NCBI RefSeq assembly: GCF_004010195.1
Contig: NW_025214536.1
Coordinates: 1 to 45,581, forward strand
DNA: 45,581 nt
Direction of reading: 5' to 3'
Origin: Chiloscyllium plagiosum
Taxonomy: Eukaryota
The position numbers and the translations under genes are program-made. Shown piece by piece: positions 21,024 to 45,581 of this stretch (position 1 is the stretch's first letter; the number at the start of each line of letters is the position of its first letter). The notes beneath the pieces were generated by a model, which saw nothing but the letters and a program-made list of their open reading frames with translations, was not told the origin of the DNA and ran no database searches.

Positions 21024-21089
21024 AAAGTGACCAGAAGTTTGGACTATACAAACACCCAGTGGGAAACTATCCAATCCACTCTCCTCTAG

Positions 21090-22533: not shown

Positions 22534-24454
22534 GAACATAGAACATTACAGCTCAGTACAGGCCCTTCGGCCCTCGATGTTGCGCCGACCTTTCATACCA
22601 ATCTGAAGCCCATCTAACCTATACTATTCCATGTACGTCCATATGCATGTCCAATGACGACTTAAATGTAATTAAAGTTGGCGAAACTGCTACCGTTACA
22701 GGCAAAGCATTCCATACCCTTACTACTCTCTGAGTAAAGAAACTACCTCTGACATCTGTCCTATATCTATCACCCCTCAATTTAAAGCTATGCCCCCTCG
22801 TGCTCGCCGTCACCATTCCTGGAAAAAGGCTCTCCCTGTTTACCCGATCTAACCCTCTGATTATCTTATATGTCTCTATTAAGTCACCTCTCAACCTTCT
22901 CCTCTCCAATGAAAACAGCCTCAAGTCCCTCAGCCTTTCCTCGTAAGACCTTCCCTCCATACCAGGCAGCATCCTAGTAAATCTCCTCTACACCCTTTCC
23001 AAAGCTTCCACATCCTCCTTATAATGCGGTGACCAGAACTGTACACAAGACACTAAGAGCGGCCACACGAGAGTTTTGTACAGCTGCAGTATAACCTCAT
23101 GGTTCCGGAACTCGATCCCTCTGTTAATAAAAGCAAAAACACTCTATGCATTCTTAACAAACCTGTCAACCTGGGTGGAAACTTACCAGGATCTGTGTAC
23201 CTGGACACCGAGATCTCTCTGCTCATCTACACTACCAAGAATCTTACCATTAGCCCAATACTTTGCATTCCGGTTACTCCAACCAAAGTGAATCACCTCA
23301 CTCTTGTCCGCATTAACCTCCATTTGTCACCTCTCAGCCCAGCTCTGCAACTTATCTATGTCTGTCTGTAACCTACAACATCATTCGTCACTATCCACAA
23401 CTCAATCGACCTTAGTGTCGTCTGCAAATTTATTAACCCACCCTTCTATTCCCTCATCCAGTTCGTTTACAAAAATAACGAACGGCAGTGAACCCAACAC
23501 CGATCCTTGCGGTACATCACTGGTAACTGAACTCCAGGATGAACACTTCCCATCAACTACTACCCTCTGTCTTCTTTCAGCAAGCCAATTACTGATCCAA
23601 ACTGCTATATATCCCACAATCCCATTCCTCCGCATTTTGTACAATAGTCTACTGTGGGGAATCTTACCAAACGCCTTGCTGAAATCCATATACACCACAT
23701 CAACTGGTTTATTCTCATCTACCCATTTGGTCACCTTCTCAAAGAACTCAATAAGGTTTGTGAGGCATGACCTAGCCTTCACAAAACCGTGCTGACTATC
23801 CCTAATCAATTTATTCTTTTCTAAATGATTATAAATCCTATCTCTTTTAACCTTTTCCAACACTTTACCAACAACTGATGTAAGGGTCACTGGTCTATAA
23901 TTACCAGGAATGTCTCTACTCCCCTTCCTGAACAGGAGAACCACATTTGCTATCCTCCAGTCTTCTGACACTATTTCTGTAGAAGATGACGATTTAAAGA
24001 TCAATGCCAAAGGCTCGGCAATCTCCTCCCTGACTTCCCAGAGGATCCTAGGATAAAACCCATCCGGCCCAGGGGACCTATCTATTTTAACACTCTGCAG
24101 GATTTCTAATATCTCCTCCTTGTGAAGCTCAATCACAGCTAGTCTTGTAGCCTGTATCTCAGTAATCTCCTCGACCACATTGTCGTTTTCTAGAGTGAAT
24201 ACTGCTGAAGAATATTCATTTCGTGCCTCCCCTATCTCCTCTGACTCCACACACTAGTGCCCACTACTATCCTTGATTGGCCCTAATCTTACTCTCATTA
24301 TTCTTTCATTCCTTAAATACTTCGGGTTTACCCTGATCCTACCCGCCAACAACTTCTCATGTCTCCTCCTTGTTCTTCTGAGCTCTCTCTTTAGGTCTTT
24401 CCTGGCGACCTTGTAACCCTCAAGCGCCCTAACTGAGCCTTCACATCTCATCCT
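22534..24454 (-). mobile_element. CR1 LINE, 5'-truncated or interrupted, RT with nonsense mutations
   Basis: Minus ORFs 23402-24250 (GPDG, NYRPVTLTS, QHGF, MDFSKAF, PQGSVLG, FADDTK) and 22619-22972. Tail GAACATAGAACAT at 22534 and hairpin AGGCCCTTCGGCCC. Confidence 0.95.
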
Positions 24455-27400
24455 TTGTGCCATGCTGCGTGTGCGCGATGTCAGTGCCGGTCTTTGTGCC
24501 ATGCTGCGTGTGCGCGATGTCAGTGCCGGTCTTTGTGCCATGCTGCGTGTGCGCGATGTCAGTGCCGGTCTTTGTGCCATGCTGCGTGTGCGCGATGTCA
24601 GTGCCGGTCTTTGTGCCATGCTGCGTGTGCGCGATGTCAGTGCCGGTCTTTGTGCCATGCTGCGTGTGCGCGATGTCAGTGCCGGTCTTTGTGCCATGCT
24701 GCGTGTGCGCGATGTCAGTGCCGGTCTTTGTGCCATGCTGCGTGTGCGCGATGTCAGTGCCGGTCTTTGTGCCATGCTGCGTGTGCGCGATGTCAGTGCC
24801 GGTCTTTGTGCCATGCTGCGTGTGCGCGATGTCAGTGCCGGTCTTTGTGCCATGCTGCGTGTGCGCGATGTCAGTGCCGGTCTTTGTGCCATGCTGCGTG
24901 TGCGCGATGTCAGTGCCGGTCTTTGTGCCATGCTGCGTGTGCGCGATGTCAGTGCCGGTCTTTGTGCCATGCTGCGTGTGCGCGATGTCAGTGCCGGTCT
25001 TTGTGCCATGCTGCGTGTGCGCGATGTCAGTGCCGGTCTTTGTGCCATGCTGCGTGTGCGCGATGTCAGTGCCGGTCTTTGTGCCATGCTGCGTGTGCGC
25101 GATGTCAGTGCCGGTCTTTGTGCCATGCTGCGTGTGCGCGATGTCAGTGCCGGTCTTTGTGCCATGCTGCGTGTGCGCGATGTCAGTGCCGGTCTTTGTG
25201 CCATGCTGCGTGTGCGCGATGTCAGTGCCGGTCTTTGTGCCATGCTGCGTGTGCGCGATGTCAGTGCCGGTCTTTGTGCCATGCTGCGTGTGCGCGATGT
25301 CAGTGCCGGTCTTTGTGCCATGCTGCGTGTGCGCGATGTCAGTGCCGGTCTTTGTGCCATGCTGCGTGTGCGCGATGTCAGTGCCGGTCTTTGTGCCATG
25401 CTGCGTGTGCGCGATGTCAGTGCCGGTCTTTGTGCCATGCTGCGTGTGCGCGATGTCAGTGCCGGTCTTTGTGCCATGCTGCGTGTGCGCGATGTCAGTG
25501 CCGGTCTTTGTGCCATGCTGCGTGTGCGCGATGTCAGTGCCGGTCTTTGTGCCATGCTGCGTGTGCGCGATGTCAGTGCCGGTCTTTGTGCCATGCTGCG
25601 TGTGCGCGATGTCAGTGCCGGTCTTTGTGCCATGCTGCGTGTGCGCGATGTCAGTGCCGGTCTTTGTGCCATGCTGCGTGTGCGCGATGTCAGTGCCGGT
25701 CTTTGTGCCATGCTGCGTGTGCGCGATGTCAGTGCCGGTCTTTGTGCCATGCTGCGTGTGCGCGATGTCAGTGCCGGTCTTTGTGCCATGCTGCGTGTGC
25801 GCGATGTCAGTGCCGGTCTTTGTGCCATGCTGCGTGTGCGCGATGTCAGTGCCGGTCTTTGTGCCATGCTGCGTGTGCGCGATGTCAGTGCCGGTCTTTG
25901 TGCCATGCTGCGTGTGCGCGATGTCAGTGCCGGTCTTTGTGCCATGCTGCGTGTGCGCGATGTCAGTGCCGGTCTTTGTGCCATGCTGCGTGTGCGCGAT
26001 GTCAGTGCCGGTCTTTGTGCCATGCTGCGTGTGCGCGATGTCAGTGCCGGTCTTTGTGCCATGCTGCGTGTGCGCGATGTCAGTGCCGGTCTTTGTGCCA
26101 TGCTGCGTGTGCGCGATGTCAGTGCCGGTCTTTGTGCCATGCTGCGTGTGCGCGATGTCAGTGCCGGTCTTTGTGCCATGCTGCGTGTGCGCGATGTCAG
26201 TGCCGGTCTTTGTGCCATGCTGCGTGTGCGCGATGTCAGTGCCGGTCTTTGTGCCATGCTGCGTGTGCGCGATGTCAGTGCCGGTCTTTGTGCCATGCTG
26301 CGTGTGCGCGATGTCAGTGCCGGTCTTTGTGCCATGCTGCGTGTGCGCGATGTCAGTGCCGGTCTTTGTGCCATGCTGCGTGTGCGCGATGTCAGTGCCG
26401 GTCTTTGTGCCATGCTGCGTGTGCGCGATGTCAGTGCCGGTCTTTGTGCCATGCTGCGTGTGCGCGATGTCAGTGCCGGTCTTTGTGCCATGCTGCGTGT
26501 GCGCGATGTCAGTGCCGGTCTTTGTGCCATGCTGCGTGTGCGCGATGTCAGTGCCGGTCTTTGTGCCATGCTGCGTGTGCGCGATGTCAGTGCCGGTCTT
26601 TGTGCCATGCTGCGTGTGCGCGATGTCAGTGCCGGTCTTTGTGCCATGCTGCGTGTGCGCGATGTCAGTGCCGGTCTTTGTGCCATGCTGCGTGTGCGCG
26701 ATGTCAGTGCCGGTCTTTGTGCCATGCTGCGTGTGCGCGATGTCAGTGCCGGTCTTTGTGCCATGCTGCGTGTGCGCGATGTCAGTGCCGGTCTTTGTGC
26801 CATGCTGCGTGTGCGCGATGTCAGTGCCGGTCTTTGTGCCATGCTGCGTGTGCGCGATGTCAGTGCCGGTCTTTGTGCCATGCTGCGTGTGCGCGATGTC
26901 AGTGCCGGTCTTTGTGCCATGCTGCGTGTGCGCGATGTCAGTGCCGGTCTTTGTGCCATGCTGCGTGTGCGCGATGTCAGTGCCGGTCTTTGTGCCATGC
27001 TGCGTGTGCGCGATGTCAGTGCCGGTCTTTGTGCCATGCTGCGTGTGCGCGATGTCAGTGCCGGTCTTTGTGCCATGCTGCGTGTGCGCGATGTCAGTGC
27101 CGGTCTTTGTGCCATGCTGCGTGTGCGCGATGTCAGTGCCGGTCTTTGTGCCATGCTGCGTGTGCGCGATGTCAGTGCCGGTCTTTGTGCCATGCTGCGT
27201 GTGCGCGATGTCAGTGCCGGTCTTTGTGCCATGCTGCGTGTGCGCGATGTCAGTGCCGGTCTTTGTGCCATGCTGCGTGTGCGCGATGTCAGTGCCGGTC
27301 TTTGTGCCATGCTGCGTGTGCGCGATGTCAGTGCCGGTCTTTGTGCCATGCTGCGTGTGCGCGATGTCAGTGCCGGTCTTTGTGCCATGCTGCGTGTGCG

Positions 27401-30400
27401 CGATGTCAGTGCCGGTCTTTGTGCCATGCTGCGTGTGCGCGATGTCAGTGCCGGTCTTTGTGCCATGCTGCGTGTGCGCGATGTCAGTGCCGGTCTTTGT
27501 GCCATGCTGCGTGTGCGCGATGTCAGTGCCGGTCTTTGTGCCATGCTGCGTGTGCGCGATGTCAGTGCCGGTCTTTGTGCCATGCTGCGTGTGCGCGATG
27601 TCAGTGCCGGTCTTTGTGCCATGCTGCGTGTGCGCGATGTCAGTGCCGGTCTTTGTGCCATGCTGCGTGTGCGCGATGTCAGTGCCGGTCTTTGTGCCAT
27701 GCTGCGTGTGCGCGATGTCAGTGCCGGTCTTTGTGCCATGCTGCGTGTGCGCGATGTCAGTGCCGGTCTTTGTGCCATGCTGCGTGTGCGCGATGTCAGT
27801 GCCGGTCTTTGTGCCATGCTGCGTGTGCGCGATGTCAGTGCCGGTCTTTGTGCCATGCTGCGTGTGCGCGATGTCAGTGCCGGTCTTTGTGCCATGCTGC
27901 GTGTGCGCGATGTCAGTGCCGGTCTTTGTGCCATGCTGCGTGTGCGCGATGTCAGTGCCGGTCTTTGTGCCATGCTGCGTGTGCGCGATGTCAGTGCCGG
28001 TCTTTGTGCCATGCTGCGTGTGCGCGATGTCAGTGCCGGTCTTTGTGCCATGCTGCGTGTGCGCGATGTCAGTGCCGGTCTTTGTGCCATGCTGCGTGTG
28101 CGCGATGTCAGTGCCGGTCTTTGTGCCATGCTGCGTGTGCGCGATGTCAGTGCCGGTCTTTGTGCCATGCTGCGTGTGCGCGATGTCAGTGCCGGTCTTT
28201 GTGCCATGCTGCGTGTGCGCGATGTCAGTGCCGGTCTTTGTGCCATGCTGCGTGTGCGCGATGTCAGTGCCGGTCTTTGTGCCATGCTGCGTGTGCGCGA
28301 TGTCAGTGCCGGTCTTTGTGCCATGCTGCGTGTGCGCGATGTCAGTGCCGGTCTTTGTGCCATGCTGCGTGTGCGCGATGTCAGTGCCGGTCTTTGTGCC
28401 ATGCTGCGTGTGCGCGATGTCAGTGCCGGTCTTTGTGCCATGCTGCGTGTGCGCGATGTCAGTGCCGGTCTTTGTGCCATGCTGCGTGTGCGCGATGTCA
28501 GTGCCGGTCTTTGTGCCATGCTGCGTGTGCGCGATGTCAGTGCCGGTCTTTGTGCCATGCTGCGTGTGCGCGATGTCAGTGCCGGTCTTTGTGCCATGCT
28601 GCGTGTGCGCGATGTCAGTGCCGGTCTTTGTGCCATGCTGCGTGTGCGCGATGTCAGTGCCGGTCTTTGTGCCATGCTGCGTGTGCGCGATGTCAGTGCC
28701 GGTCTTTGTGCCATGCTGCGTGTGCGCGATGTCAGTGCCGGTCTTTGTGCCATGCTGCGTGTGCGCGATGTCAGTGCCGGTCTTTGTGCCATGCTGCGTG
28801 TGCGCGATGTCAGTGCCGGTCTTTGTGCCATGCTGCGTGTGCGCGATGTCAGTGCCGGTCTTTGTGCCATGCTGCGTGTGCGCGATGTCAGTGCCGGTCT
28901 TTGTGCCATGCTGCGTGTGCGCGATGTCAGTGCCGGTCTTTGTGCCATGCTGCGTGTGCGCGATGTCAGTGCCGGTCTTTGTGCCATGCTGCGTGTGCGC
29001 GATGTCAGTGCCGGTCTTTGTGCCATGCTGCGTGTGCGCGATGTCAGTGCCGGTCTTTGTGCCATGCTGCGTGTGCGCGATGTCAGTGCCGGTCTTTGTG
29101 CCATGCTGCGTGTGCGCGATGTCAGTGCCGGTCTTTGTGCCATGCTGCGTGTGCGCGATGTCAGTGCCGGTCTTTGTGCCATGCTGCGTGTGCGCGATGT
29201 CAGTGCCGGTCTTTGTGCCATGCTGCGTGTGCGCGATGTCAGTGCCGGTCTTTGTGCCATGCTGCGTGTGCGCGATGTCAGTGCCGGTCTTTGTGCCATG
29301 CTGCGTGTGCGCGATGTCAGTGCCGGTCTTTGTGCCATGCTGCGTGTGCGCGATGTCAGTGCCGGTCTTTGTGCCATGCTGCGTGTGCGCGATGTCAGTG
29401 CCGGTCTTTGTGCCATGCTGCGTGTGCGCGATGTCAGTGCCGGTCTTTGTGCCATGCTGCGTGTGCGCGATGTCAGTGCCGGTCTTTGTGCCATGCTGCG
29501 TGTGCGCGATGTCAGTGCCGGTCTTTGTGCCATGCTGCGTGTGCGCGATGTCAGTGCCGGTCTTTGTGCCATGCTGCGTGTGCGCGATGTCAGTGCCGGT
29601 CTTTGTGCCATGCTGCGTGTGCGCGATGTCAGTGCCGGTCTTTGTGCCATGCTGCGTGTGCGCGATGTCAGTGCCGGTCTTTGTGCCATGCTGCGTGTGC
29701 GCGATGTCAGTGCCGGTCTTTGTGCCATGCTGCGTGTGCGCGATGTCAGTGCCGGTCTTTGTGCCATGCTGCGTGTGCGCGATGTCAGTGCCGGTCTTTG
29801 TGCCATGCTGCGTGTGCGCGATGTCAGTGCCGGTCTTTGTGCCATGCTGCGTGTGCGCGATGTCAGTGCCGGTCTTTGTGCCATGCTGCGTGTGCGCGAT
29901 GTCAGTGCCGGTCTTTGTGCCATGCTGCGTGTGCGCGATGTCAGTGCCGGTCTTTGTGCCATGCTGCGTGTGCGCGATGTCAGTGCCGGTCTTTGTGCCA
30001 TGCTGCGTGTGCGCGATGTCAGTGCCGGTCTTTGTGCCATGCTGCGTGTGCGCGATGTCAGTGCCGGTCTTTGTGCCATGCTGCGTGTGCGCGATGTCAG
30101 TGCCGGTCTTTGTGCCATGCTGCGTGTGCGCGATGTCAGTGCCGGTCTTTGTGCCATGCTGCGTGTGCGCGATGTCAGTGCCGGTCTTTGTGCCATGCTG
30201 CGTGTGCGCGATGTCAGTGCCGGTCTTTGTGCCATGCTGCGTGTGCGCGATGTCAGTGCCGGTCTTTGTGCCATGCTGCGTGTGCGCGATGTCAGTGCCG
30301 GTCTTTGTGCCATGCTGCGTGTGCGCGATGTCAGTGCCGGTCTTTGTGCCATGCTGCGTGTGCGCGATGTCAGTGCCGGTCTTTGTGCCATGCTGCGTGT

Positions 30401-33400
30401 GCGCGATGTCAGTGCCGGTCTTTGTGCCATGCTGCGTGTGCGCGATGTCAGTGCCGGTCTTTGTGCCATGCTGCGTGTGCGCGATGTCAGTGCCGGTCTT
30501 TGTGCCATGCTGCGTGTGCGCGATGTCAGTGCCGGTCTTTGTGCCATGCTGCGTGTGCGCGATGTCAGTGCCGGTCTTTGTGCCATGCTGCGTGTGCGCG
30601 ATGTCAGTGCCGGTCTTTGTGCCATGCTGCGTGTGCGCGATGTCAGTGCCGGTCTTTGTGCCATGCTGCGTGTGCGCGATGTCAGTGCCGGTCTTTGTGC
30701 CATGCTGCGTGTGCGCGATGTCAGTGCCGGTCTTTGTGCCATGCTGCGTGTGCGCGATGTCAGTGCCGGTCTTTGTGCCATGCTGCGTGTGCGCGATGTC
30801 AGTGCCGGTCTTTGTGCCATGCTGCGTGTGCGCGATGTCAGTGCCGGTCTTTGTGCCATGCTGCGTGTGCGCGATGTCAGTGCCGGTCTTTGTGCCATGC
30901 TGCGTGTGCGCGATGTCAGTGCCGGTCTTTGTGCCATGCTGCGTGTGCGCGATGTCAGTGCCGGTCTTTGTGCCATGCTGCGTGTGCGCGATGTCAGTGC
31001 CGGTCTTTGTGCCATGCTGCGTGTGCGCGATGTCAGTGCCGGTCTTTGTGCCATGCTGCGTGTGCGCGATGTCAGTGCCGGTCTTTGTGCCATGCTGCGT
31101 GTGCGCGATGTCAGTGCCGGTCTTTGTGCCATGCTGCGTGTGCGCGATGTCAGTGCCGGTCTTTGTGCCATGCTGCGTGTGCGCGATGTCAGTGCCGGTC
31201 TTTGTGCCATGCTGCGTGTGCGCGATGTCAGTGCCGGTCTTTGTGCCATGCTGCGTGTGCGCGATGTCAGTGCCGGTCTTTGTGCCATGCTGCGTGTGCG
31301 CGATGTCAGTGCCGGTCTTTGTGCCATGCTGCGTGTGCGCGATGTCAGTGCCGGTCTTTGTGCCATGCTGCGTGTGCGCGATGTCAGTGCCGGTCTTTGT
31401 GCCATGCTGCGTGTGCGCGATGTCAGTGCCGGTCTTTGTGCCATGCTGCGTGTGCGCGATGTCAGTGCCGGTCTTTGTGCCATGCTGCGTGTGCGCGATG
31501 TCAGTGCCGGTCTTTGTGCCATGCTGCGTGTGCGCGATGTCAGTGCCGGTCTTTGTGCCATGCTGCGTGTGCGCGATGTCAGTGCCGGTCTTTGTGCCAT
31601 GCTGCGTGTGCGCGATGTCAGTGCCGGTCTTTGTGCCATGCTGCGTGTGCGCGATGTCAGTGCCGGTCTTTGTGCCATGCTGCGTGTGCGCGATGTCAGT
31701 GCCGGTCTTTGTGCCATGCTGCGTGTGCGCGATGTCAGTGCCGGTCTTTGTGCCATGCTGCGTGTGCGCGATGTCAGTGCCGGTCTTTGTGCCATGCTGC
31801 GTGTGCGCGATGTCAGTGCCGGTCTTTGTGCCATGCTGCGTGTGCGCGATGTCAGTGCCGGTCTTTGTGCCATGCTGCGTGTGCGCGATGTCAGTGCCGG
31901 TCTTTGTGCCATGCTGCGTGTGCGCGATGTCAGTGCCGGTCTTTGTGCCATGCTGCGTGTGCGCGATGTCAGTGCCGGTCTTTGTGCCATGCTGCGTGTG
32001 CGCGATGTCAGTGCCGGTCTTTGTGCCATGCTGCGTGTGCGCGATGTCAGTGCCGGTCTTTGTGCCATGCTGCGTGTGCGCGATGTCAGTGCCGGTCTTT
32101 GTGCCATGCTGCGTGTGCGCGATGTCAGTGCCGGTCTTTGTGCCATGCTGCGTGTGCGCGATGTCAGTGCCGGTCTTTGTGCCATGCTGCGTGTGCGCGA
32201 TGTCAGTGCCGGTCTTTGTGCCATGCTGCGTGTGCGCGATGTCAGTGCCGGTCTTTGTGCCATGCTGCGTGTGCGCGATGTCAGTGCCGGTCTTTGTGCC
32301 ATGCTGCGTGTGCGCGATGTCAGTGCCGGTCTTTGTGCCATGCTGCGTGTGCGCGATGTCAGTGCCGGTCTTTGTGCCATGCTGCGTGTGCGCGATGTCA
32401 GTGCCGGTCTTTGTGCCATGCTGCGTGTGCGCGATGTCAGTGCCGGTCTTTGTGCCATGCTGCGTGTGCGCGATGTCAGTGCCGGTCTTTGTGCCATGCT
32501 GCGTGTGCGCGATGTCAGTGCCGGTCTTTGTGCCATGCTGCGTGTGCGCGATGTCAGTGCCGGTCTTTGTGCCATGCTGCGTGTGCGCGATGTCAGTGCC
32601 GGTCTTTGTGCCATGCTGCGTGTGCGCGATGTCAGTGCCGGTCTTTGTGCCATGCTGCGTGTGCGCGATGTCAGTGCCGGTCTTTGTGCCATGCTGCGTG
32701 TGCGCGATGTCAGTGCCGGTCTTTGTGCCATGCTGCGTGTGCGCGATGTCAGTGCCGGTCTTTGTGCCATGCTGCGTGTGCGCGATGTCAGTGCCGGTCT
32801 TTGTGCCATGCTGCGTGTGCGCGATGTCAGTGCCGGTCTTTGTGCCATGCTGCGTGTGCGCGATGTCAGTGCCGGTCTTTGTGCCATGCTGCGTGTGCGC
32901 GATGTCAGTGCCGGTCTTTGTGCCATGCTGCGTGTGCGCGATGTCAGTGCCGGTCTTTGTGCCATGCTGCGTGTGCGCGATGTCAGTGCCGGTCTTTGTG
33001 CCATGCTGCGTGTGCGCGATGTCAGTGCCGGTCTTTGTGCCATGCTGCGTGTGCGCGATGTCAGTGCCGGTCTTTGTGCCATGCTGCGTGTGCGCGATGT
33101 CAGTGCCGGTCTTTGTGCCATGCTGCGTGTGCGCGATGTCAGTGCCGGTCTTTGTGCCATGCTGCGTGTGCGCGATGTCAGTGCCGGTCTTTGTGCCATG
33201 CTGCGTGTGCGCGATGTCAGTGCCGGTCTTTGTGCCATGCTGCGTGTGCGCGATGTCAGTGCCGGTCTTTGTGCCATGCTGCGTGTGCGCGATGTCAGTG
33301 CCGGTCTTTGTGCCATGCTGCGTGTGCGCGATGTCAGTGCCGGTCTTTGTGCCATGCTGCGTGTGCGCGATGTCAGTGCCGGTCTTTGTGCCATGCTGCG

Positions 33401-36400
33401 TGTGCGCGATGTCAGTGCCGGTCTTTGTGCCATGCTGCGTGTGCGCGATGTCAGTGCCGGTCTTTGTGCCATGCTGCGTGTGCGCGATGTCAGTGCCGGT
33501 CTTTGTGCCATGCTGCGTGTGCGCGATGTCAGTGCCGGTCTTTGTGCCATGCTGCGTGTGCGCGATGTCAGTGCCGGTCTTTGTGCCATGCTGCGTGTGC
33601 GCGATGTCAGTGCCGGTCTTTGTGCCATGCTGCGTGTGCGCGATGTCAGTGCCGGTCTTTGTGCCATGCTGCGTGTGCGCGATGTCAGTGCCGGTCTTTG
33701 TGCCATGCTGCGTGTGCGCGATGTCAGTGCCGGTCTTTGTGCCATGCTGCGTGTGCGCGATGTCAGTGCCGGTCTTTGTGCCATGCTGCGTGTGCGCGAT
33801 GTCAGTGCCGGTCTTTGTGCCATGCTGCGTGTGCGCGATGTCAGTGCCGGTCTTTGTGCCATGCTGCGTGTGCGCGATGTCAGTGCCGGTCTTTGTGCCA
33901 TGCTGCGTGTGCGCGATGTCAGTGCCGGTCTTTGTGCCATGCTGCGTGTGCGCGATGTCAGTGCCGGTCTTTGTGCCATGCTGCGTGTGCGCGATGTCAG
34001 TGCCGGTCTTTGTGCCATGCTGCGTGTGCGCGATGTCAGTGCCGGTCTTTGTGCCATGCTGCGTGTGCGCGATGTCAGTGCCGGTCTTTGTGCCATGCTG
34101 CGTGTGCGCGATGTCAGTGCCGGTCTTTGTGCCATGCTGCGTGTGCGCGATGTCAGTGCCGGTCTTTGTGCCATGCTGCGTGTGCGCGATGTCAGTGCCG
34201 GTCTTTGTGCCATGCTGCGTGTGCGCGATGTCAGTGCCGGTCTTTGTGCCATGCTGCGTGTGCGCGATGTCAGTGCCGGTCTTTGTGCCATGCTGCGTGT
34301 GCGCGATGTCAGTGCCGGTCTTTGTGCCATGCTGCGTGTGCGCGATGTCAGTGCCGGTCTTTGTGCCATGCTGCGTGTGCGCGATGTCAGTGCCGGTCTT
34401 TGTGCCATGCTGCGTGTGCGCGATGTCAGTGCCGGTCTTTGTGCCATGCTGCGTGTGCGCGATGTCAGTGCCGGTCTTTGTGCCATGCTGCGTGTGCGCG
34501 ATGTCAGTGCCGGTCTTTGTGCCATGCTGCGTGTGCGCGATGTCAGTGCCGGTCTTTGTGCCATGCTGCGTGTGCGCGATGTCAGTGCCGGTCTTTGTGC
34601 CATGCTGCGTGTGCGCGATGTCAGTGCCGGTCTTTGTGCCATGCTGCGTGTGCGCGATGTCAGTGCCGGTCTTTGTGCCATGCTGCGTGTGCGCGATGTC
34701 AGTGCCGGTCTTTGTGCCATGCTGCGTGTGCGCGATGTCAGTGCCGGTCTTTGTGCCATGCTGCGTGTGCGCGATGTCAGTGCCGGTCTTTGTGCCATGC
34801 TGCGTGTGCGCGATGTCAGTGCCGGTCTTTGTGCCATGCTGCGTGTGCGCGATGTCAGTGCCGGTCTTTGTGCCATGCTGCGTGTGCGCGATGTCAGTGC
34901 CGGTCTTTGTGCCATGCTGCGTGTGCGCGATGTCAGTGCCGGTCTTTGTGCCATGCTGCGTGTGCGCGATGTCAGTGCCGGTCTTTGTGCCATGCTGCGT
35001 GTGCGCGATGTCAGTGCCGGTCTTTGTGCCATGCTGCGTGTGCGCGATGTCAGTGCCGGTCTTTGTGCCATGCTGCGTGTGCGCGATGTCAGTGCCGGTC
35101 TTTGTGCCATGCTGCGTGTGCGCGATGTCAGTGCCGGTCTTTGTGCCATGCTGCGTGTGCGCGATGTCAGTGCCGGTCTTTGTGCCATGCTGCGTGTGCG
35201 CGATGTCAGTGCCGGTCTTTGTGCCATGCTGCGTGTGCGCGATGTCAGTGCCGGTCTTTGTGCCATGCTGCGTGTGCGCGATGTCAGTGCCGGTCTTTGT
35301 GCCATGCTGCGTGTGCGCGATGTCAGTGCCGGTCTTTGTGCCATGCTGCGTGTGCGCGATGTCAGTGCCGGTCTTTGTGCCATGCTGCGTGTGCGCGATG
35401 TCAGTGCCGGTCTTTGTGCCATGCTGCGTGTGCGCGATGTCAGTGCCGGTCTTTGTGCCATGCTGCGTGTGCGCGATGTCAGTGCCGGTCTTTGTGCCAT
35501 GCTGCGTGTGCGCGATGTCAGTGCCGGTCTTTGTGCCATGCTGCGTGTGCGCGATGTCAGTGCCGGTCTTTGTGCCATGCTGCGTGTGCGCGATGTCAGT
35601 GCCGGTCTTTGTGCCATGCTGCGTGTGCGCGATGTCAGTGCCGGTCTTTGTGCCATGCTGCGTGTGCGCGATGTCAGTGCCGGTCTTTGTGCCATGCTGC
35701 GTGTGCGCGATGTCAGTGCCGGTCTTTGTGCCATGCTGCGTGTGCGCGATGTCAGTGCCGGTCTTTGTGCCATGCTGCGTGTGCGCGATGTCAGTGCCGG
35801 TCTTTGTGCCATGCTGCGTGTGCGCGATGTCAGTGCCGGTCTTTGTGCCATGCTGCGTGTGCGCGATGTCAGTGCCGGTCTTTGTGCCATGCTGCGTGTG
35901 CGCGATGTCAGTGCCGGTCTTTGTGCCATGCTGCGTGTGCGCGATGTCAGTGCCGGTCTTTGTGCCATGCTGCGTGTGCGCGATGTCAGTGCCGGTCTTT
36001 GTGCCATGCTGCGTGTGCGCGATGTCAGTGCCGGTCTTTGTGCCATGCTGCGTGTGCGCGATGTCAGTGCCGGTCTTTGTGCCATGCTGCGTGTGCGCGA
36101 TGTCAGTGCCGGTCTTTGTGCCATGCTGCGTGTGCGCGATGTCAGTGCCGGTCTTTGTGCCATGCTGCGTGTGCGCGATGTCAGTGCCGGTCTTTGTGCC
36201 ATGCTGCGTGTGCGCGATGTCAGTGCCGGTCTTTGTGCCATGCTGCGTGTGCGCGATGTCAGTGCCGGTCTTTGTGCCATGCTGCGTGTGCGCGATGTCA
36301 GTGCCGGTCTTTGTGCCATGCTGCGTGTGCGCGATGTCAGTGCCGGTCTTTGTGCCATGCTGCGTGTGCGCGATGTCAGTGCCGGTCTTTGTGCCATGCT

Positions 36401-39400
36401 GCGTGTGCGCGATGTCAGTGCCGGTCTTTGTGCCATGCTGCGTGTGCGCGATGTCAGTGCCGGTCTTTGTGCCATGCTGCGTGTGCGCGATGTCAGTGCC
36501 GGTCTTTGTGCCATGCTGCGTGTGCGCGATGTCAGTGCCGGTCTTTGTGCCATGCTGCGTGTGCGCGATGTCAGTGCCGGTCTTTGTGCCATGCTGCGTG
36601 TGCGCGATGTCAGTGCCGGTCTTTGTGCCATGCTGCGTGTGCGCGATGTCAGTGCCGGTCTTTGTGCCATGCTGCGTGTGCGCGATGTCAGTGCCGGTCT
36701 TTGTGCCATGCTGCGTGTGCGCGATGTCAGTGCCGGTCTTTGTGCCATGCTGCGTGTGCGCGATGTCAGTGCCGGTCTTTGTGCCATGCTGCGTGTGCGC
36801 GATGTCAGTGCCGGTCTTTGTGCCATGCTGCGTGTGCGCGATGTCAGTGCCGGTCTTTGTGCCATGCTGCGTGTGCGCGATGTCAGTGCCGGTCTTTGTG
36901 CCATGCTGCGTGTGCGCGATGTCAGTGCCGGTCTTTGTGCCATGCTGCGTGTGCGCGATGTCAGTGCCGGTCTTTGTGCCATGCTGCGTGTGCGCGATGT
37001 CAGTGCCGGTCTTTGTGCCATGCTGCGTGTGCGCGATGTCAGTGCCGGTCTTTGTGCCATGCTGCGTGTGCGCGATGTCAGTGCCGGTCTTTGTGCCATG
37101 CTGCGTGTGCGCGATGTCAGTGCCGGTCTTTGTGCCATGCTGCGTGTGCGCGATGTCAGTGCCGGTCTTTGTGCCATGCTGCGTGTGCGCGATGTCAGTG
37201 CCGGTCTTTGTGCCATGCTGCGTGTGCGCGATGTCAGTGCCGGTCTTTGTGCCATGCTGCGTGTGCGCGATGTCAGTGCCGGTCTTTGTGCCATGCTGCG
37301 TGTGCGCGATGTCAGTGCCGGTCTTTGTGCCATGCTGCGTGTGCGCGATGTCAGTGCCGGTCTTTGTGCCATGCTGCGTGTGCGCGATGTCAGTGCCGGT
37401 CTTTGTGCCATGCTGCGTGTGCGCGATGTCAGTGCCGGTCTTTGTGCCATGCTGCGTGTGCGCGATGTCAGTGCCGGTCTTTGTGCCATGCTGCGTGTGC
37501 GCGATGTCAGTGCCGGTCTTTGTGCCATGCTGCGTGTGCGCGATGTCAGTGCCGGTCTTTGTGCCATGCTGCGTGTGCGCGATGTCAGTGCCGGTCTTTG
37601 TGCCATGCTGCGTGTGCGCGATGTCAGTGCCGGTCTTTGTGCCATGCTGCGTGTGCGCGATGTCAGTGCCGGTCTTTGTGCCATGCTGCGTGTGCGCGAT
37701 GTCAGTGCCGGTCTTTGTGCCATGCTGCGTGTGCGCGATGTCAGTGCCGGTCTTTGTGCCATGCTGCGTGTGCGCGATGTCAGTGCCGGTCTTTGTGCCA
37801 TGCTGCGTGTGCGCGATGTCAGTGCCGGTCTTTGTGCCATGCTGCGTGTGCGCGATGTCAGTGCCGGTCTTTGTGCCATGCTGCGTGTGCGCGATGTCAG
37901 TGCCGGTCTTTGTGCCATGCTGCGTGTGCGCGATGTCAGTGCCGGTCTTTGTGCCATGCTGCGTGTGCGCGATGTCAGTGCCGGTCTTTGTGCCATGCTG
38001 CGTGTGCGCGATGTCAGTGCCGGTCTTTGTGCCATGCTGCGTGTGCGCGATGTCAGTGCCGGTCTTTGTGCCATGCTGCGTGTGCGCGATGTCAGTGCCG
38101 GTCTTTGTGCCATGCTGCGTGTGCGCGATGTCAGTGCCGGTCTTTGTGCCATGCTGCGTGTGCGCGATGTCAGTGCCGGTCTTTGTGCCATGCTGCGTGT
38201 GCGCGATGTCAGTGCCGGTCTTTGTGCCATGCTGCGTGTGCGCGATGTCAGTGCCGGTCTTTGTGCCATGCTGCGTGTGCGCGATGTCAGTGCCGGTCTT
38301 TGTGCCATGCTGCGTGTGCGCGATGTCAGTGCCGGTCTTTGTGCCATGCTGCGTGTGCGCGATGTCAGTGCCGGTCTTTGTGCCATGCTGCGTGTGCGCG
38401 ATGTCAGTGCCGGTCTTTGTGCCATGCTGCGTGTGCGCGATGTCAGTGCCGGTCTTTGTGCCATGCTGCGTGTGCGCGATGTCAGTGCCGGTCTTTGTGC
38501 CATGCTGCGTGTGCGCGATGTCAGTGCCGGTCTTTGTGCCATGCTGCGTGTGCGCGATGTCAGTGCCGGTCTTTGTGCCATGCTGCGTGTGCGCGATGTC
38601 AGTGCCGGTCTTTGTGCCATGCTGCGTGTGCGCGATGTCAGTGCCGGTCTTTGTGCCATGCTGCGTGTGCGCGATGTCAGTGCCGGTCTTTGTGCCATGC
38701 TGCGTGTGCGCGATGTCAGTGCCGGTCTTTGTGCCATGCTGCGTGTGCGCGATGTCAGTGCCGGTCTTTGTGCCATGCTGCGTGTGCGCGATGTCAGTGC
38801 CGGTCTTTGTGCCATGCTGCGTGTGCGCGATGTCAGTGCCGGTCTTTGTGCCATGCTGCGTGTGCGCGATGTCAGTGCCGGTCTTTGTGCCATGCTGCGT
38901 GTGCGCGATGTCAGTGCCGGTCTTTGTGCCATGCTGCGTGTGCGCGATGTCAGTGCCGGTCTTTGTGCCATGCTGCGTGTGCGCGATGTCAGTGCCGGTC
39001 TTTGTGCCATGCTGCGTGTGCGCGATGTCAGTGCCGGTCTTTGTGCCATGCTGCGTGTGCGCGATGTCAGTGCCGGTCTTTGTGCCATGCTGCGTGTGCG
39101 CGATGTCAGTGCCGGTCTTTGTGCCATGCTGCGTGTGCGCGATGTCAGTGCCGGTCTTTGTGCCATGCTGCGTGTGCGCGATGTCAGTGCCGGTCTTTGT
39201 GCCATGCTGCGTGTGCGCGATGTCAGTGCCGGTCTTTGTGCCATGCTGCGTGTGCGCGATGTCAGTGCCGGTCTTTGTGCCATGCTGCGTGTGCGCGATG
39301 TCAGTGCCGGTCTTTGTGCCATGCTGCGTGTGCGCGATGTCAGTGCCGGTCTTTGTGCCATGCTGCGTGTGCGCGATGTCAGTGCCGGTCTTTGTGCCAT

Positions 39401-42400
39401 GCTGCGTGTGCGCGATGTCAGTGCCGGTCTTTGTGCCATGCTGCGTGTGCGCGATGTCAGTGCCGGTCTTTGTGCCATGCTGCGTGTGCGCGATGTCAGT
39501 GCCGGTCTTTGTGCCATGCTGCGTGTGCGCGATGTCAGTGCCGGTCTTTGTGCCATGCTGCGTGTGCGCGATGTCAGTGCCGGTCTTTGTGCCATGCTGC
39601 GTGTGCGCGATGTCAGTGCCGGTCTTTGTGCCATGCTGCGTGTGCGCGATGTCAGTGCCGGTCTTTGTGCCATGCTGCGTGTGCGCGATGTCAGTGCCGG
39701 TCTTTGTGCCATGCTGCGTGTGCGCGATGTCAGTGCCGGTCTTTGTGCCATGCTGCGTGTGCGCGATGTCAGTGCCGGTCTTTGTGCCATGCTGCGTGTG
39801 CGCGATGTCAGTGCCGGTCTTTGTGCCATGCTGCGTGTGCGCGATGTCAGTGCCGGTCTTTGTGCCATGCTGCGTGTGCGCGATGTCAGTGCCGGTCTTT
39901 GTGCCATGCTGCGTGTGCGCGATGTCAGTGCCGGTCTTTGTGCCATGCTGCGTGTGCGCGATGTCAGTGCCGGTCTTTGTGCCATGCTGCGTGTGCGCGA
40001 TGTCAGTGCCGGTCTTTGTGCCATGCTGCGTGTGCGCGATGTCAGTGCCGGTCTTTGTGCCATGCTGCGTGTGCGCGATGTCAGTGCCGGTCTTTGTGCC
40101 ATGCTGCGTGTGCGCGATGTCAGTGCCGGTCTTTGTGCCATGCTGCGTGTGCGCGATGTCAGTGCCGGTCTTTGTGCCATGCTGCGTGTGCGCGATGTCA
40201 GTGCCGGTCTTTGTGCCATGCTGCGTGTGCGCGATGTCAGTGCCGGTCTTTGTGCCATGCTGCGTGTGCGCGATGTCAGTGCCGGTCTTTGTGCCATGCT
40301 GCGTGTGCGCGATGTCAGTGCCGGTCTTTGTGCCATGCTGCGTGTGCGCGATGTCAGTGCCGGTCTTTGTGCCATGCTGCGTGTGCGCGATGTCAGTGCC
40401 GGTCTTTGTGCCATGCTGCGTGTGCGCGATGTCAGTGCCGGTCTTTGTGCCATGCTGCGTGTGCGCGATGTCAGTGCCGGTCTTTGTGCCATGCTGCGTG
40501 TGCGCGATGTCAGTGCCGGTCTTTGTGCCATGCTGCGTGTGCGCGATGTCAGTGCCGGTCTTTGTGCCATGCTGCGTGTGCGCGATGTCAGTGCCGGTCT
40601 TTGTGCCATGCTGCGTGTGCGCGATGTCAGTGCCGGTCTTTGTGCCATGCTGCGTGTGCGCGATGTCAGTGCCGGTCTTTGTGCCATGCTGCGTGTGCGC
40701 GATGTCAGTGCCGGTCTTTGTGCCATGCTGCGTGTGCGCGATGTCAGTGCCGGTCTTTGTGCCATGCTGCGTGTGCGCGATGTCAGTGCCGGTCTTTGTG
40801 CCATGCTGCGTGTGCGCGATGTCAGTGCCGGTCTTTGTGCCATGCTGCGTGTGCGCGATGTCAGTGCCGGTCTTTGTGCCATGCTGCGTGTGCGCGATGT
40901 CAGTGCCGGTCTTTGTGCCATGCTGCGTGTGCGCGATGTCAGTGCCGGTCTTTGTGCCATGCTGCGTGTGCGCGATGTCAGTGCCGGTCTTTGTGCCATG
41001 CTGCGTGTGCGCGATGTCAGTGCCGGTCTTTGTGCCATGCTGCGTGTGCGCGATGTCAGTGCCGGTCTTTGTGCCATGCTGCGTGTGCGCGATGTCAGTG
41101 CCGGTCTTTGTGCCATGCTGCGTGTGCGCGATGTCAGTGCCGGTCTTTGTGCCATGCTGCGTGTGCGCGATGTCAGTGCCGGTCTTTGTGCCATGCTGCG
41201 TGTGCGCGATGTCAGTGCCGGTCTTTGTGCCATGCTGCGTGTGCGCGATGTCAGTGCCGGTCTTTGTGCCATGCTGCGTGTGCGCGATGTCAGTGCCGGT
41301 CTTTGTGCCATGCTGCGTGTGCGCGATGTCAGTGCCGGTCTTTGTGCCATGCTGCGTGTGCGCGATGTCAGTGCCGGTCTTTGTGCCATGCTGCGTGTGC
41401 GCGATGTCAGTGCCGGTCTTTGTGCCATGCTGCGTGTGCGCGATGTCAGTGCCGGTCTTTGTGCCATGCTGCGTGTGCGCGATGTCAGTGCCGGTCTTTG
41501 TGCCATGCTGCGTGTGCGCGATGTCAGTGCCGGTCTTTGTGCCATGCTGCGTGTGCGCGATGTCAGTGCCGGTCTTTGTGCCATGCTGCGTGTGCGCGAT
41601 GTCAGTGCCGGTCTTTGTGCCATGCTGCGTGTGCGCGATGTCAGTGCCGGTCTTTGTGCCATGCTGCGTGTGCGCGATGTCAGTGCCGGTCTTTGTGCCA
41701 TGCTGCGTGTGCGCGATGTCAGTGCCGGTCTTTGTGCCATGCTGCGTGTGCGCGATGTCAGTGCCGGTCTTTGTGCCATGCTGCGTGTGCGCGATGTCAG
41801 TGCCGGTCTTTGTGCCATGCTGCGTGTGCGCGATGTCAGTGCCGGTCTTTGTGCCATGCTGCGTGTGCGCGATGTCAGTGCCGGTCTTTGTGCCATGCTG
41901 CGTGTGCGCGATGTCAGTGCCGGTCTTTGTGCCATGCTGCGTGTGCGCGATGTCAGTGCCGGTCTTTGTGCCATGCTGCGTGTGCGCGATGTCAGTGCCG
42001 GTCTTTGTGCCATGCTGCGTGTGCGCGATGTCAGTGCCGGTCTTTGTGCCATGCTGCGTGTGCGCGATGTCAGTGCCGGTCTTTGTGCCATGCTGCGTGT
42101 GCGCGATGTCAGTGCCGGTCTTTGTGCCATGCTGCGTGTGCGCGATGTCAGTGCCGGTCTTTGTGCCATGCTGCGTGTGCGCGATGTCAGTGCCGGTCTT
42201 TGTGCCATGCTGCGTGTGCGCGATGTCAGTGCCGGTCTTTGTGCCATGCTGCGTGTGCGCGATGTCAGTGCCGGTCTTTGTGCCATGCTGCGTGTGCGCG
42301 ATGTCAGTGCCGGTCTTTGTGCCATGCTGCGTGTGCGCGATGTCAGTGCCGGTCTTTGTGCCATGCTGCGTGTGCGCGATGTCAGTGCCGGTCTTTGTGC

Positions 42401-45400
42401 CATGCTGCGTGTGCGCGATGTCAGTGCCGGTCTTTGTGCCATGCTGCGTGTGCGCGATGTCAGTGCCGGTCTTTGTGCCATGCTGCGTGTGCGCGATGTC
42501 AGTGCCGGTCTTTGTGCCATGCTGCGTGTGCGCGATGTCAGTGCCGGTCTTTGTGCCATGCTGCGTGTGCGCGATGTCAGTGCCGGTCTTTGTGCCATGC
42601 TGCGTGTGCGCGATGTCAGTGCCGGTCTTTGTGCCATGCTGCGTGTGCGCGATGTCAGTGCCGGTCTTTGTGCCATGCTGCGTGTGCGCGATGTCAGTGC
42701 CGGTCTTTGTGCCATGCTGCGTGTGCGCGATGTCAGTGCCGGTCTTTGTGCCATGCTGCGTGTGCGCGATGTCAGTGCCGGTCTTTGTGCCATGCTGCGT
42801 GTGCGCGATGTCAGTGCCGGTCTTTGTGCCATGCTGCGTGTGCGCGATGTCAGTGCCGGTCTTTGTGCCATGCTGCGTGTGCGCGATGTCAGTGCCGGTC
42901 TTTGTGCCATGCTGCGTGTGCGCGATGTCAGTGCCGGTCTTTGTGCCATGCTGCGTGTGCGCGATGTCAGTGCCGGTCTTTGTGCCATGCTGCGTGTGCG
43001 CGATGTCAGTGCCGGTCTTTGTGCCATGCTGCGTGTGCGCGATGTCAGTGCCGGTCTTTGTGCCATGCTGCGTGTGCGCGATGTCAGTGCCGGTCTTTGT
43101 GCCATGCTGCGTGTGCGCGATGTCAGTGCCGGTCTTTGTGCCATGCTGCGTGTGCGCGATGTCAGTGCCGGTCTTTGTGCCATGCTGCGTGTGCGCGATG
43201 TCAGTGCCGGTCTTTGTGCCATGCTGCGTGTGCGCGATGTCAGTGCCGGTCTTTGTGCCATGCTGCGTGTGCGCGATGTCAGTGCCGGTCTTTGTGCCAT
43301 GCTGCGTGTGCGCGATGTCAGTGCCGGTCTTTGTGCCATGCTGCGTGTGCGCGATGTCAGTGCCGGTCTTTGTGCCATGCTGCGTGTGCGCGATGTCAGT
43401 GCCGGTCTTTGTGCCATGCTGCGTGTGCGCGATGTCAGTGCCGGTCTTTGTGCCATGCTGCGTGTGCGCGATGTCAGTGCCGGTCTTTGTGCCATGCTGC
43501 GTGTGCGCGATGTCAGTGCCGGTCTTTGTGCCATGCTGCGTGTGCGCGATGTCAGTGCCGGTCTTTGTGCCATGCTGCGTGTGCGCGATGTCAGTGCCGG
43601 TCTTTGTGCCATGCTGCGTGTGCGCGATGTCAGTGCCGGTCTTTGTGCCATGCTGCGTGTGCGCGATGTCAGTGCCGGTCTTTGTGCCATGCTGCGTGTG
43701 CGCGATGTCAGTGCCGGTCTTTGTGCCATGCTGCGTGTGCGCGATGTCAGTGCCGGTCTTTGTGCCATGCTGCGTGTGCGCGATGTCAGTGCCGGTCTTT
43801 GTGCCATGCTGCGTGTGCGCGATGTCAGTGCCGGTCTTTGTGCCATGCTGCGTGTGCGCGATGTCAGTGCCGGTCTTTGTGCCATGCTGCGTGTGCGCGA
43901 TGTCAGTGCCGGTCTTTGTGCCATGCTGCGTGTGCGCGATGTCAGTGCCGGTCTTTGTGCCATGCTGCGTGTGCGCGATGTCAGTGCCGGTCTTTGTGCC
44001 ATGCTGCGTGTGCGCGATGTCAGTGCCGGTCTTTGTGCCATGCTGCGTGTGCGCGATGTCAGTGCCGGTCTTTGTGCCATGCTGCGTGTGCGCGATGTCA
44101 GTGCCGGTCTTTGTGCCATGCTGCGTGTGCGCGATGTCAGTGCCGGTCTTTGTGCCATGCTGCGTGTGCGCGATGTCAGTGCCGGTCTTTGTGCCATGCT
44201 GCGTGTGCGCGATGTCAGTGCCGGTCTTTGTGCCATGCTGCGTGTGCGCGATGTCAGTGCCGGTCTTTGTGCCATGCTGCGTGTGCGCGATGTCAGTGCC
44301 GGTCTTTGTGCCATGCTGCGTGTGCGCGATGTCAGTGCCGGTCTTTGTGCCATGCTGCGTGTGCGCGATGTCAGTGCCGGTCTTTGTGCCATGCTGCGTG
44401 TGCGCGATGTCAGTGCCGGTCTTTGTGCCATGCTGCGTGTGCGCGATGTCAGTGCCGGTCTTTGTGCCATGCTGCGTGTGCGCGATGTCAGTGTCAGTCT
44501 TTGTGCCATGCTGCGTGTGCGCGATGTCAGTGCTAATCTTCGTGCCATGCTGCATGTGCGCGATGTCAGTGATGGTCTTCGTGCCATGCTGCATGTGCGC
44601 GATGTCAGTGATGGTCTTCGTGCCATGCTGCGTGTGCGCGATGTCAGTGATGGTCTTTGTGCCATGCTGCGTGTGCACGATGTCAGTGCCGGTCTTTGTG
44701 CCTTGCTGCGTGTACGCGATGTCAGTGATGGTCTTCGTGCCATGCTGCGTGTGCGCGATGTCAGTGCTGGTCTTTGTGCCATGCTGCGTGTGCGCGATGT
44801 CAGTGATGGTCTTTGTGCCATGCTGCGTGTGCGCGATGTCAGTGCCGGTCTTTGTGCCATGCTGCGTGTGCGCGATGTCAGTGCTAATCTTCGTGCCATG
44901 CTGCGTGTGCGCGATGTCAGTGTCAGTCTTCGTGCCATGCTGCGTGTGCACGATGTCAGTGCCGGTCTTTGTGCCTTGCTGCGTGTACGCGATGTCAGTG
45001 ATGGTCTTCGTGCCATGCTGCGTGTGCGCGATGTCAGTGCTGGTCTTTGTGCCATGCTGCGTGTGCGCGATGTCAGTGATGGTCTTTGTGCCATGCTGCG
45101 TGTGCGCGATGTCAGTGCCGGTCTTTGTGCCATGCTGCGTGTGCGCGATGTCAGTGCCGGTCTTTGTGCCATGCTGCGTGTGCGCGATGTCAGTGTCAGT
45201 CTTCGTGCCTTGCTGCGTGTGCGCGATGTCAGTGCTGGTCTTTGTGCCATGCTGCGTGTGCGCGATGTCAGTGCTAGTCTTCGTGCCATGCTGCGTGTGC
45301 GCGATGTCAGTGCTAGTCTTCGTGCCATGCTGCGTGTGCACGATGTCAGTGTCAGTCTTTGTACCATGCTGCGTGTGCGCGATGTCAGTCCTAGTCTTTG

Positions 45401-45581
45401 TGCCATGCTGCGTGTGCGCGATGTCAGTGCTGGTCTTTGTGCCATGCTGCGTGTGCACGATGTCAGTGATGGTCTTTGTGCCATGTTGCATGTGCGCGAT
45501 GTCAGTGCTGGTCTTTGTGCCATGCTGCATGTGCACGATGTCAGTGATGGTCTTTGTGCCATGCTGCGTGTGCACGATGTC
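24453..45581. repeat. 39-bp tandem repeat array (minisatellite/satellite), about 542 units, unit CTTTGTGCCATGCTGCGTGTGCGCGATGTCAGTGCCGGT
   Basis: Period 39 holds without net indel to the window end. 513 apparently identical units span 24453-44459; first variant seen at 44494. Unit is 24/39 GC with 4 CpG. Confidence 0.99.

Follow-up and report, generated by a model that had tools for sequence, protein, structure and literature searches.

The window analysed here, the whole 45,581 nt stretch of contig NW_025214536.1 from Chiloscyllium plagiosum, ends in a long tandem array of a 39-bp unit that starts abruptly inside an old retroelement. The features of the region are, from left to right:

21755..22032, no strand: young tandem duplication, with parts of 51 nt and 81 nt that are each 100% identical; the first copy is without 15 nt
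21950..22533, plus strand: probable remnant of an L1-type ORF1 that breaks off at the CR1 3' end and does not continue beyond the CR1
22534..24452, minus strand: decayed CR1-type LINE, with its 3' end at about 22534 and cut at 24452 in ORF2, upstream of the reverse-transcriptase domain
24452..24453, no strand: blunt junction where the CR1 meets the first perfect unit, with no degenerate edge units and no N
24453..44459, no strand: 513 identical 39-bp units in one block; perfect periodicity lasts until 44493
44460..45581, no strand: variant part of the 39-bp minisatellite (the tail), 28 full units and part of another, running off the window

A perfect block and a variant tail

On a per-unit check, positions 24453-44459 proved to be exactly 513 copies of one 39-mer, with zero substitutions or indels. 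Each unit has a GC content of about 61.5% and carries four CpGs and one CCGG, giving 2052 CpGs and 513 CCGG sites in the block, and the observed/expected CpG ratio is 1.11 in the block versus 0.42 in the flank. An earlier interpretation made from the letters alone (the sequence-only reading) had reported the same 513 unchanged units, four CpGs in each (about 2000 overall) and a single CCGG per unit, all of which agree with the counts, and had omitted that the array continues as 28 variant units to the window end. Tandem Repeats Finder (TRF), which it had proposed as a check, returned a 39-bp array of 541.8 copies reaching position 45581. The perfect run extends 34 bases past the block, for a total of 20,041 bp, and the first mismatch is at 44494. 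An Rfam scan of the window gave no matches, and the exact 30-base core of the unit had none in metagenome and viral contigs. A limited literature search listed no publication on this repeat. When four units were folded as DNA the result was no better than for shuffled sequences (z +1.0), which leaves hairpin-driven instability of the array without support.

The 28 full units of the tail fall into 20 types, with no indels and a mean pairwise difference of 8.3%, and the longest identical run is two units, against 513 in the block. Differences per unit go from 0 to about 2.5 as a step at the boundary, with no gradient. The tail also contains a 7-unit internal duplication, with four identical pairs of units at lag 7. 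The block unit occurs there three times in 28 and is one base apart from the tail consensus (unit position 36 is C in the block, and C in nine and T in 19 of the tail units). Greedy k-mer walks on the tail recovered the block unit rightwards only, at k of at least 39; leftwards walks gave other cycles or dead ends. Given this 3/28 frequency in the neighbouring units, 513 block units in succession would have a log10 P of about -498, and chance assembly of the block from the tail's unit mix is ruled out. Four of the 13 distinct tail variants lie at CpG (2.7 expected, p 0.27); all four are of the deamination type and account for 37 of 70 variant occurrences, suggesting past CpG methylation of the array. 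Units arranged head to tail within the minisatellite (VNTR) range of about 10-100 bp, interspersed variants and local turnover are all present, and the 39-bp repeat is best read as a genuine minisatellite of the shark, non-coding and with variant units of the ordinary sort.

That the array instead encodes a protein repeat of 13 residues is barely credible. Four of the six frames (+0, +1, -0 and -1) are stop-free from 24453 to 45581, and frame -1 happens to continue in frame into the CR1 ORF2 remnant; however, a 39-bp unit without a stop produces open frames by construction, and the invariance of the translated frames, remarked upon in the sequence-only reading, is true but trivial because the units are identical. 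Neither homologous proteins, with frame -0 as the query of the large libraries, nor a bias towards silent changes was found. Most tail variants alter residues in the two frames printed, and third positions of the best frame hold six of the 13 distinct variants against 4.3 expected. Of the 101 matches of frame -0 among 1.84 billion representatives, none has a 7-residue word in common with any frame. The best Atlas score was 0.88 with low recognition, and the Pfam matches of the array are short chance matches to repeats.

The left junction and its flanking elements

The left edge of the array shows 0 bases of in-phase extension of the unit, and no 11-mer of the unit occurs in positions 1-24452 on either strand. 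This blunt start inside a decayed CR1 LINE was left out of the sequence-only reading; its description of the neighbouring retroelements as heavily mutated holds for the CR1 copy, which has seven internal stops ahead of a probable natural stop at codon 611. The element gave an RVT_1 match (E 5e-21) and was aligned to a longer copy in the window at 10818-10991. Its CR1-type name rests on the reverse-transcriptase match, on a high copy number and on its 3' end, which resembles what we take to be the 3' ends of CR1-type elements. Between 96,546 and 150,176 contig records per sequencing run aligned over 19600-24570 (three 39-bp units included), and the alignments of runs X2, X9 and X11 to this interval were dominated by LINE copies; run X22 gave no aligned reads, which is uninformative on transcription or splicing of the array. 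Of 24 listed sequencing runs, the best contained 0.27 of the words sampled from the window. Among the 24 pieces listed of about 363,000, each was at most 381 letters long with 25-54 differences, and none was an orthologous contig. Depth in the last bin mixes LINE and array, and perfect arrays collapse in contigs of this sort, so these alignments carry no information on the presence of the unit in relatives. Loose alignment ends fell at 22534 in three sequencing runs. The CR1 linker, used as a query for microhomology at the junction, gave no match.

The sequence at 21950..22533 belongs to a family that is repeated in relatives. By Atlas features it matched, at 0.91, a cluster with Transposase_22 on 11% of its members, while Pfam, PDB and homolog searches returned no relevant match, and its L1 identity is a lead only. 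The young tandem duplication and the junction are 2.4 kb apart. Contigs of X9 and X11 join position 21778 to 21909 and so skip one copy of the duplication, and the duplication at 21755..22032 could itself be an assembly product.

Assembly or expansion as the source of the block

We consider it most probable, at roughly 55%, that assembly, through an unrolled loop or a fill, set the number of copies in the perfect block, the block unit itself being a real minisatellite variant. The identity of the units, the length of the run, the blunt edge and the variant tail are observed directly, and from these we infer the role of software. One real variant would have been repeated in the record up to a limit of 20,000 bases (or 512 extra copies) or up to a gap estimate, whether a loop in the assembly graph was unrolled, a contig end was extended or a model fill was inserted. 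Two forms of this are consistent with the data. It is possible, and tentatively put first, that the true perfect run exceeds the reads or the k-mer, the CR1 junction being real and only the number 513 arbitrary. Slightly less probable is that the block bridges a contig ending in the high-copy LINE and another starting in the minisatellite, in which case junction and block would be largely unreal.

The assembly reading is favoured mainly by the round length of the block. Period-39 self-matching holds over 20,002 positions, so that the run equals one unit plus 20,000 plus 2, and 513 is both 20000/39 rounded up and 512 + 1. For a length that a parameter might have set, this figure of one unit and 20,002 bases has a chance of 0.2-1.6% under a log-uniform model of 10-50 kb in which the run lands just above a 5- or 10-kb multiple (0.2-0.3% for a margin of 15 bases, 1.0-1.6% for one of 80 bases); the roundness was spotted post hoc, and the chance becomes 1.5-8% if any 1-kb multiple is counted as round, which weighs against the assembly reading. 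All copies of the block are identical and its edges are abrupt, as in an assembly model, and the longest run of 513 units in the block versus two in the tail, with a step between them, points in the same direction. Contigs tend to break in high-copy LINEs and tandem arrays, and both ends of the block lie in such break-prone sequence, which also argues for assembly, as does the agreement of the block length with the HiFi read length of about 20 kb. The block reaches the edge of the array, and since the centres of tandem arrays, not their ends, are described as usually the most homogeneous (PMC5615363), this too supports an assembly product. Documented practice lends further support: model arrays are reported in published assemblies as uniform blocks (PMC9186530), the zebra finch assembly is described as also containing sequence-model arrays (preprint 10.1101/2025.10.14.682431), and a graph cycle can be output as tandem copies whose multiplicity is estimated (PMC13273997).

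Several observations count against an assembly origin. There is no N at the junction of CR1 and block, the tail beside the block is crisply resolved, so that the pipeline kept variants there, and the block unit is a genuine variant of the array rather than the tail consensus. Real uninterrupted minisatellite expansions of several kb are also on record (PMC9714581). In a limited literature search, no assembly program with a 20,000-base limit or a 20,000-base fill was identified. If the copy number was written by assembly, the locus is a warning for this genome, in which perfect arrays and the joins adjoining them should not be read as biology.

The sequence-only reading had listed an assembly or polishing artefact among its options, and the two parts fare differently: an assembly product of another sort, the unrolled loop or fill, is favoured, and polishing is very improbable. 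Polishing would have homogenised a variable array through out-of-register reads and a majority vote that yields consensus units, an artefact named 'regression to the mean' in the CGC1 preprint (10.1101/2024.12.04.626850). The block unit is only one base from the tail consensus, and a different majority may hold for the part of the array outside the window, but at position 36 the block does not carry the column majority of the 28 visible units. Simulated piles of 30 tail units returned the block unit 36 times in 2000, and 513 identical results would need 60-70% or more of added block-type units (P 0.06 at 60% and 0.71 at 70%). The adjacent tail, moreover, was not homogenised.

A tenfold excess of mutation at CpG, the value in mammals, was assumed for estimates of age. 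With this excess and the mutation rate of the epaulette shark (7e-10 per base per generation, PMC10587355), a 20-kb stretch could stay unchanged for up to about 75,000 generations, or 37,000 to 376,000 over the confidence interval of that rate; the available text of the stickleback (PMC12218844) and shark (PMC10587355) papers gives no fold value for the CpG excess. The 'very recent' amplification suggested before is therefore overstated, and amplification of a single variant keeps its place among the options. The CpG paradox of the block is weak, and the absence of CpG decay calls for no new protective mechanism, whether the block is real or made by assembly.

Because a clean block is allowed for up to about 75,000 generations, active maintenance is not needed either. 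The idea of a centromeric or subtelomeric satellite whose uniformity is maintained by concerted evolution had been raised in the sequence-only reading, found no support in the window, and appears highly unlikely. No telomeric array was found (six TTAGGG and six CCCTAA hexamers in the whole window, none in the TRF list), nor was a CENP-B-box-like match to the mammalian motif. Instead of a uniform core with diverged ends, the block sits at the left edge of the array with a step on its right, and homogeneity without maintenance is possible at shark mutation rates. On the other side, the array runs off the window and so may be much longer, and in the zebra shark tandem repeats are described as enriched on short chromosomes, with chromosome ends sharing such traits (preprint).

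A more serious alternative, though less probable than an assembly-set copy number, is that the block is real as written, one minisatellite variant having been amplified about 500-fold in a single recent event. Its most likely route would be a break in the old CR1 that was repaired by copying from the array, either by break-induced replication in which slippage recurred or by rolling-circle copying of a small circle holding one or a few units; such repair would account at once for the blunt junction and for the perfect run, and the remaining CR1 and L1 sequence would have been removed or displaced by it. Consistent with this, the block unit is present in the tail (3/28), and a block free of changes is to be expected at ages of up to about 75,000 generations. 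An old element is severed within its ORF2 at the junction, and on the far side the L1-like target does not reappear, which suggests that the junction is unlike the CR1's own insertion joint, and 2.4 kb away lies a 100%-identical, template-switch-like duplication that is skipped in the contigs of relatives. Uninterrupted expansions of 33-42-bp units at FRA10B and FRA16B (PMC9714581) and a 30-mer at 100-3000 copies (PMC10502081) are described precedents, and rolling-circle reinsertion is a proposed route of amplification (PMC5615363). Against a real expansion stand the length, which falls on 20,000 plus one unit, and the nearby duplication, which may be an assembly product as well; the L1 identity is a lead for which Pfam, PDB and homolog searches were blank, and the remainder of the CR1 and L1 could lie past the right end of the window.

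If real, the block would be a clean case in which a GC-rich minisatellite variant was amplified in one step at a LINE break, of a kind known from human minisatellites, and would help to measure CpG decay and repeat turnover in sharks. It is unlikely, though worth stating, that a real block records how a new uniform satellite arose in a single burst. The old LINE would then have broken and been repaired by replication of one CpG-intact 39-bp unit, of the rolling-circle or the slipping break-induced type, leaving 20 kb and 2052 CpGs free of mutation in a lineage whose mutation rate is among the lowest measured in vertebrates. Were the block both real and segregating, each allele would have started, at a datable point, from an unmutated state, and CpG deamination, conversion and length change could be counted in it directly.

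Comparison with known arrays

In general build the array resembles vertebrate VNTRs, which likewise have units spanning a few dozen bases set head to tail, mixed variants, local block duplications and total lengths of kilobases to tens of kilobases. Described examples are a human 30-mer VNTR (chr12:2255791-2256090) of 100-3000 copies, the ABCA7 25-mer and the WDR7 69-mer (PMC10502081); according to the same source VNTRs often contain variants, whereas the shark block is 513 identical units. To our knowledge no fragility is associated with the shark array, unlike FRA10B and FRA16B. Those rare fragile sites are expanded minisatellites with units of about 42 bp (FRA10B) and 33 or 35 bp (FRA16B), in which one motif of a variable minisatellite became an uninterrupted run of several kb (PMC9714581), as would be the case here if the block is real; an uninterrupted multi-kb run of a single motif is present in the assembly record. 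Both are reported to be AT-rich (91% for FRA10B), whereas the shark unit is CpG-rich with a GC content of 0.615.

The model arrays described for the rDNA blocks of T2T-CHM13 and the alpha-satellite models of GRCh38 (PMC9186530), the zebra finch sequence models, and the whirl multiplicity of MGA as a case of an unrolled array (PMC13273997), share with the block identical copies in one stretch, and their copy number comes from an estimate and not from spanning reads. These arrays are documented by their authors, and the available text of these sources names no 20,000-base limit.

In C. elegans CGC1, 27-mer arrays over 20 kb and more are reported to be dominated by one or two unit types and to have been confirmed by ultra-long reads (10.1101/2024.12.04.626850), and so long near-uniform arrays can be real; unit variants are reported in those CGC1 regions, in contrast to the shark block, which has none.

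The perfect block and the variant tail

A single 39-mer is repeated 513 times from 24453 to 44459, every copy being exact when counted across the window, just as the sequence-only reading had described. The block holds 2052 CpGs, close to the earlier figure of about 2000, and 513 CCGG sites, which bears out the one site per unit reported before. The perfect run ends at 44493, and TRF, previously proposed as a check, followed the array past the block to the window's final base (541.8 copies overall). The left edge is blunt, with no in-phase extension, and 11-mers of the block unit were not found in the window to the left of the block.

The block is followed by a tail (44460-45581) with 28 full units of 20 types, free of indels, which differ from each other by 8.3% on average and never form a run of one type longer than two units. 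The change from block to tail is abrupt, from 0 to about 2.5 differences per unit with no gradient. The block unit is found in the tail (3/28, the most frequent single type), but is not the tail consensus, since the block carries C at unit position 36, where T (19 of the 28 tail units) outnumbers C (9). Four pairs of identical units spaced 7 apart reveal a local duplication of 7 units (273 bp) within the tail (44655-45083), in which units 519-523, counted from the block start, reappear nearly unaltered as units 526-530. The four CpG-site variants are all of deamination type and account for 37 of the 70 differences; as distinct variant sites they make up 4 of 13, which is not significant (p 0.27). 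The tail pattern suggests ordinary CpG decay. At unit positions 36-37 the states CG, TG, CA and TA are all present in the tail, and the CpG-intact state of the block is therefore probably ancestral there. At unit position 4, a tail variant creates a CpG that is absent from the block. The 39-bp repeat is a real, ordinary minisatellite.

CpG retention and coding potential

The epaulette shark mutation rate is given as 7e-10 per base per generation (CI 1.4-14.1e-10; PMC10587355). At this rate, and with a tenfold excess at CpG bases that is assumed rather than measured, the block would be expected to gain one change per 25,000 generations, and zero changes set a 95% age bound of about 75,000 generations (37,000-376,000 across the rate CI), or 214,000 generations when the CpG excess is left out. 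This leaves ample time for tandem repeat expansion, so the identity of the block requires no protection and no selection. The active maintenance invoked earlier is thus unnecessary; the amplification need not be very recent either, and may have been a one-step expansion.

Four of the six frames are open through the array, as expected from the 39-bp unit itself. A coding repeat is very unlikely, as the one frame searched widely returned no related protein and most tail variants alter residues. The window contains no telomeric array and no Rfam matches, a folding test gave no special fold for the unit, and its exact core had no match in viral or metagenome contigs.

Copy number and the assembly

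Positions matching the base 39 further on number 20,002, so that the run is one unit + 20,000 + 2, and 513 is ceil(20000/39), or equally 512 + 1. With lengths taken as log-uniform over 10-50 kb, and the coincidence spotted after the fact, the chance of a round 5- or 10-kb multiple is 0.2-0.3% (15-base margin) or 1.0-1.6% (80-base margin), rising to 1.5-8% when every 1-kb multiple counts as round. The round length is discounted because it was noticed after the fact and a literature search found no assembly program with a 20,000-base limit; despite this, it is the most discriminating fact. We consider a copy number set by assembly likelier than a true 513-unit expansion, at a probability of roughly 0.55. 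That probability is split almost evenly, with a slight lead for a real perfect run whose length may differ from the one written over a block that is largely unreal. These odds, and those of a true expansion, are judgements based on one after-the-fact coincidence plus anatomy.

Published assemblies contain artificial consecutive rDNA-morph blocks and alpha-satellite models (PMC9186530), the zebra finch assembly includes sequence models (10.1101/2025.10.14.682431), and graph cycles can be written as tandem repeats with estimated multiplicity (PMC13273997). HiFi reads are about 20 kb long (PMC9186530), which places the block at the limit of what they span. Tandem arrays usually have uniform centres and diverged ends (PMC5615363), whereas here the uniform part sits at the array end. 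The best public sequencing run contained 0.27 of the sampled window words. Of the artefacts raised by the sequence-only reading, it is such an assembly product that the 20,000-base coincidence favours, and not polishing, i.e., a majority vote over misregistered reads that makes variable units uniform. Polishing is unlikely, since simulated piles of tail units gave the block unit in 36 of 2000 cases, and uniformity across 513 units would require reads already mostly of block type.

A true expansion of one minisatellite variant to 513 units is possible, if less probable. Its unit is a genuine variant also present in the tail, the adjoining tail is well resolved and the sequence has no gap (0 Ns in the window). 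Precedents include the uninterrupted several-kb expansions of 33-42-bp units at FRA10B and FRA16B (PMC9714581), a human 30-mer in 100-3000 copies (PMC10502081) and read-validated C. elegans 27-mer arrays of >20 kb (10.1101/2024.12.04.626850). Against it stands the run length.

The left flank and the junction

The left 24 kb is rich in LINEs and SINEs whose types point to shark DNA, with a CpG observed/expected of 0.42, and includes:

476-591, 6619-6734 and 9751-9829: short interspersed repeat end, three copies, 72-85% alike, one inverted
6052-6171: diverged two-copy repeat, 63 bp
10600-12750, plus strand: another CR1-type copy, longer than the cut one, whose RT domain (RVT_1, E 1e-28) lies in an open stretch of 351 codons
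15066-15252: degenerate (TC)n tract, about 185 bp
21755-22032: young tandem duplication, parts of 51 and 81 nt each 100% identical, first copy lacking 15 nt of the second
22534-24452, minus strand: CR1-type LINE cut by the block (RVT_1, E 5e-21)

The duplication at 21755-22032, 2.4 kb from the junction (24452/24453), resembles the product of template switching or of a slip in assembly, and contigs from two relatives (sequencing runs X9 and X11) pass over one of its copies. As a perfect, template-switch-like event it may reflect recent repair activity, in favour of a real block, but it may instead be a further assembly slip. If the block is real, slipping break-induced replication, or else rolling-circle copying of a single unit, could have repaired a break in the LINE; that arrays formed on circles can reinsert has been proposed (PMC5615363). 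The alignments listed for relatives' contigs over the junction region were of diverged repeat copies, with none across the junction itself.

The block edge falls within ORF2 of the cut LINE, an old copy judging by its seven internal stops. Its 3' end disrupts a candidate remnant of an L1-type ORF1, a lead (Atlas match 0.91, family on 11% of members) for which Pfam, PDB and homolog searches returned nothing relevant; on the far side of the LINE the remnant is not continued. If this reading is right, 24452/24453 would not be the joint at which the LINE inserted but the site of a subsequent break, or a join made during assembly. Alternatively, the remaining parts of the LINE and the remnant could lie beyond the array. 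One minus-strand frame (24257-45581) stays open along the entire array and extends, with no change of frame, through 65 codons of what is left of the CR1 ORF2, as far as can be told a 1-in-3 coincidence. In the longer copy, the stretch that aligns with the opening residues of the cut copy is 10818-10991. The window's LINEs are a mix of several subfamilies. The longer copy shares 65% identity with a decayed copy at 1070-2364, as compared solely through the alignment of the cut copy.
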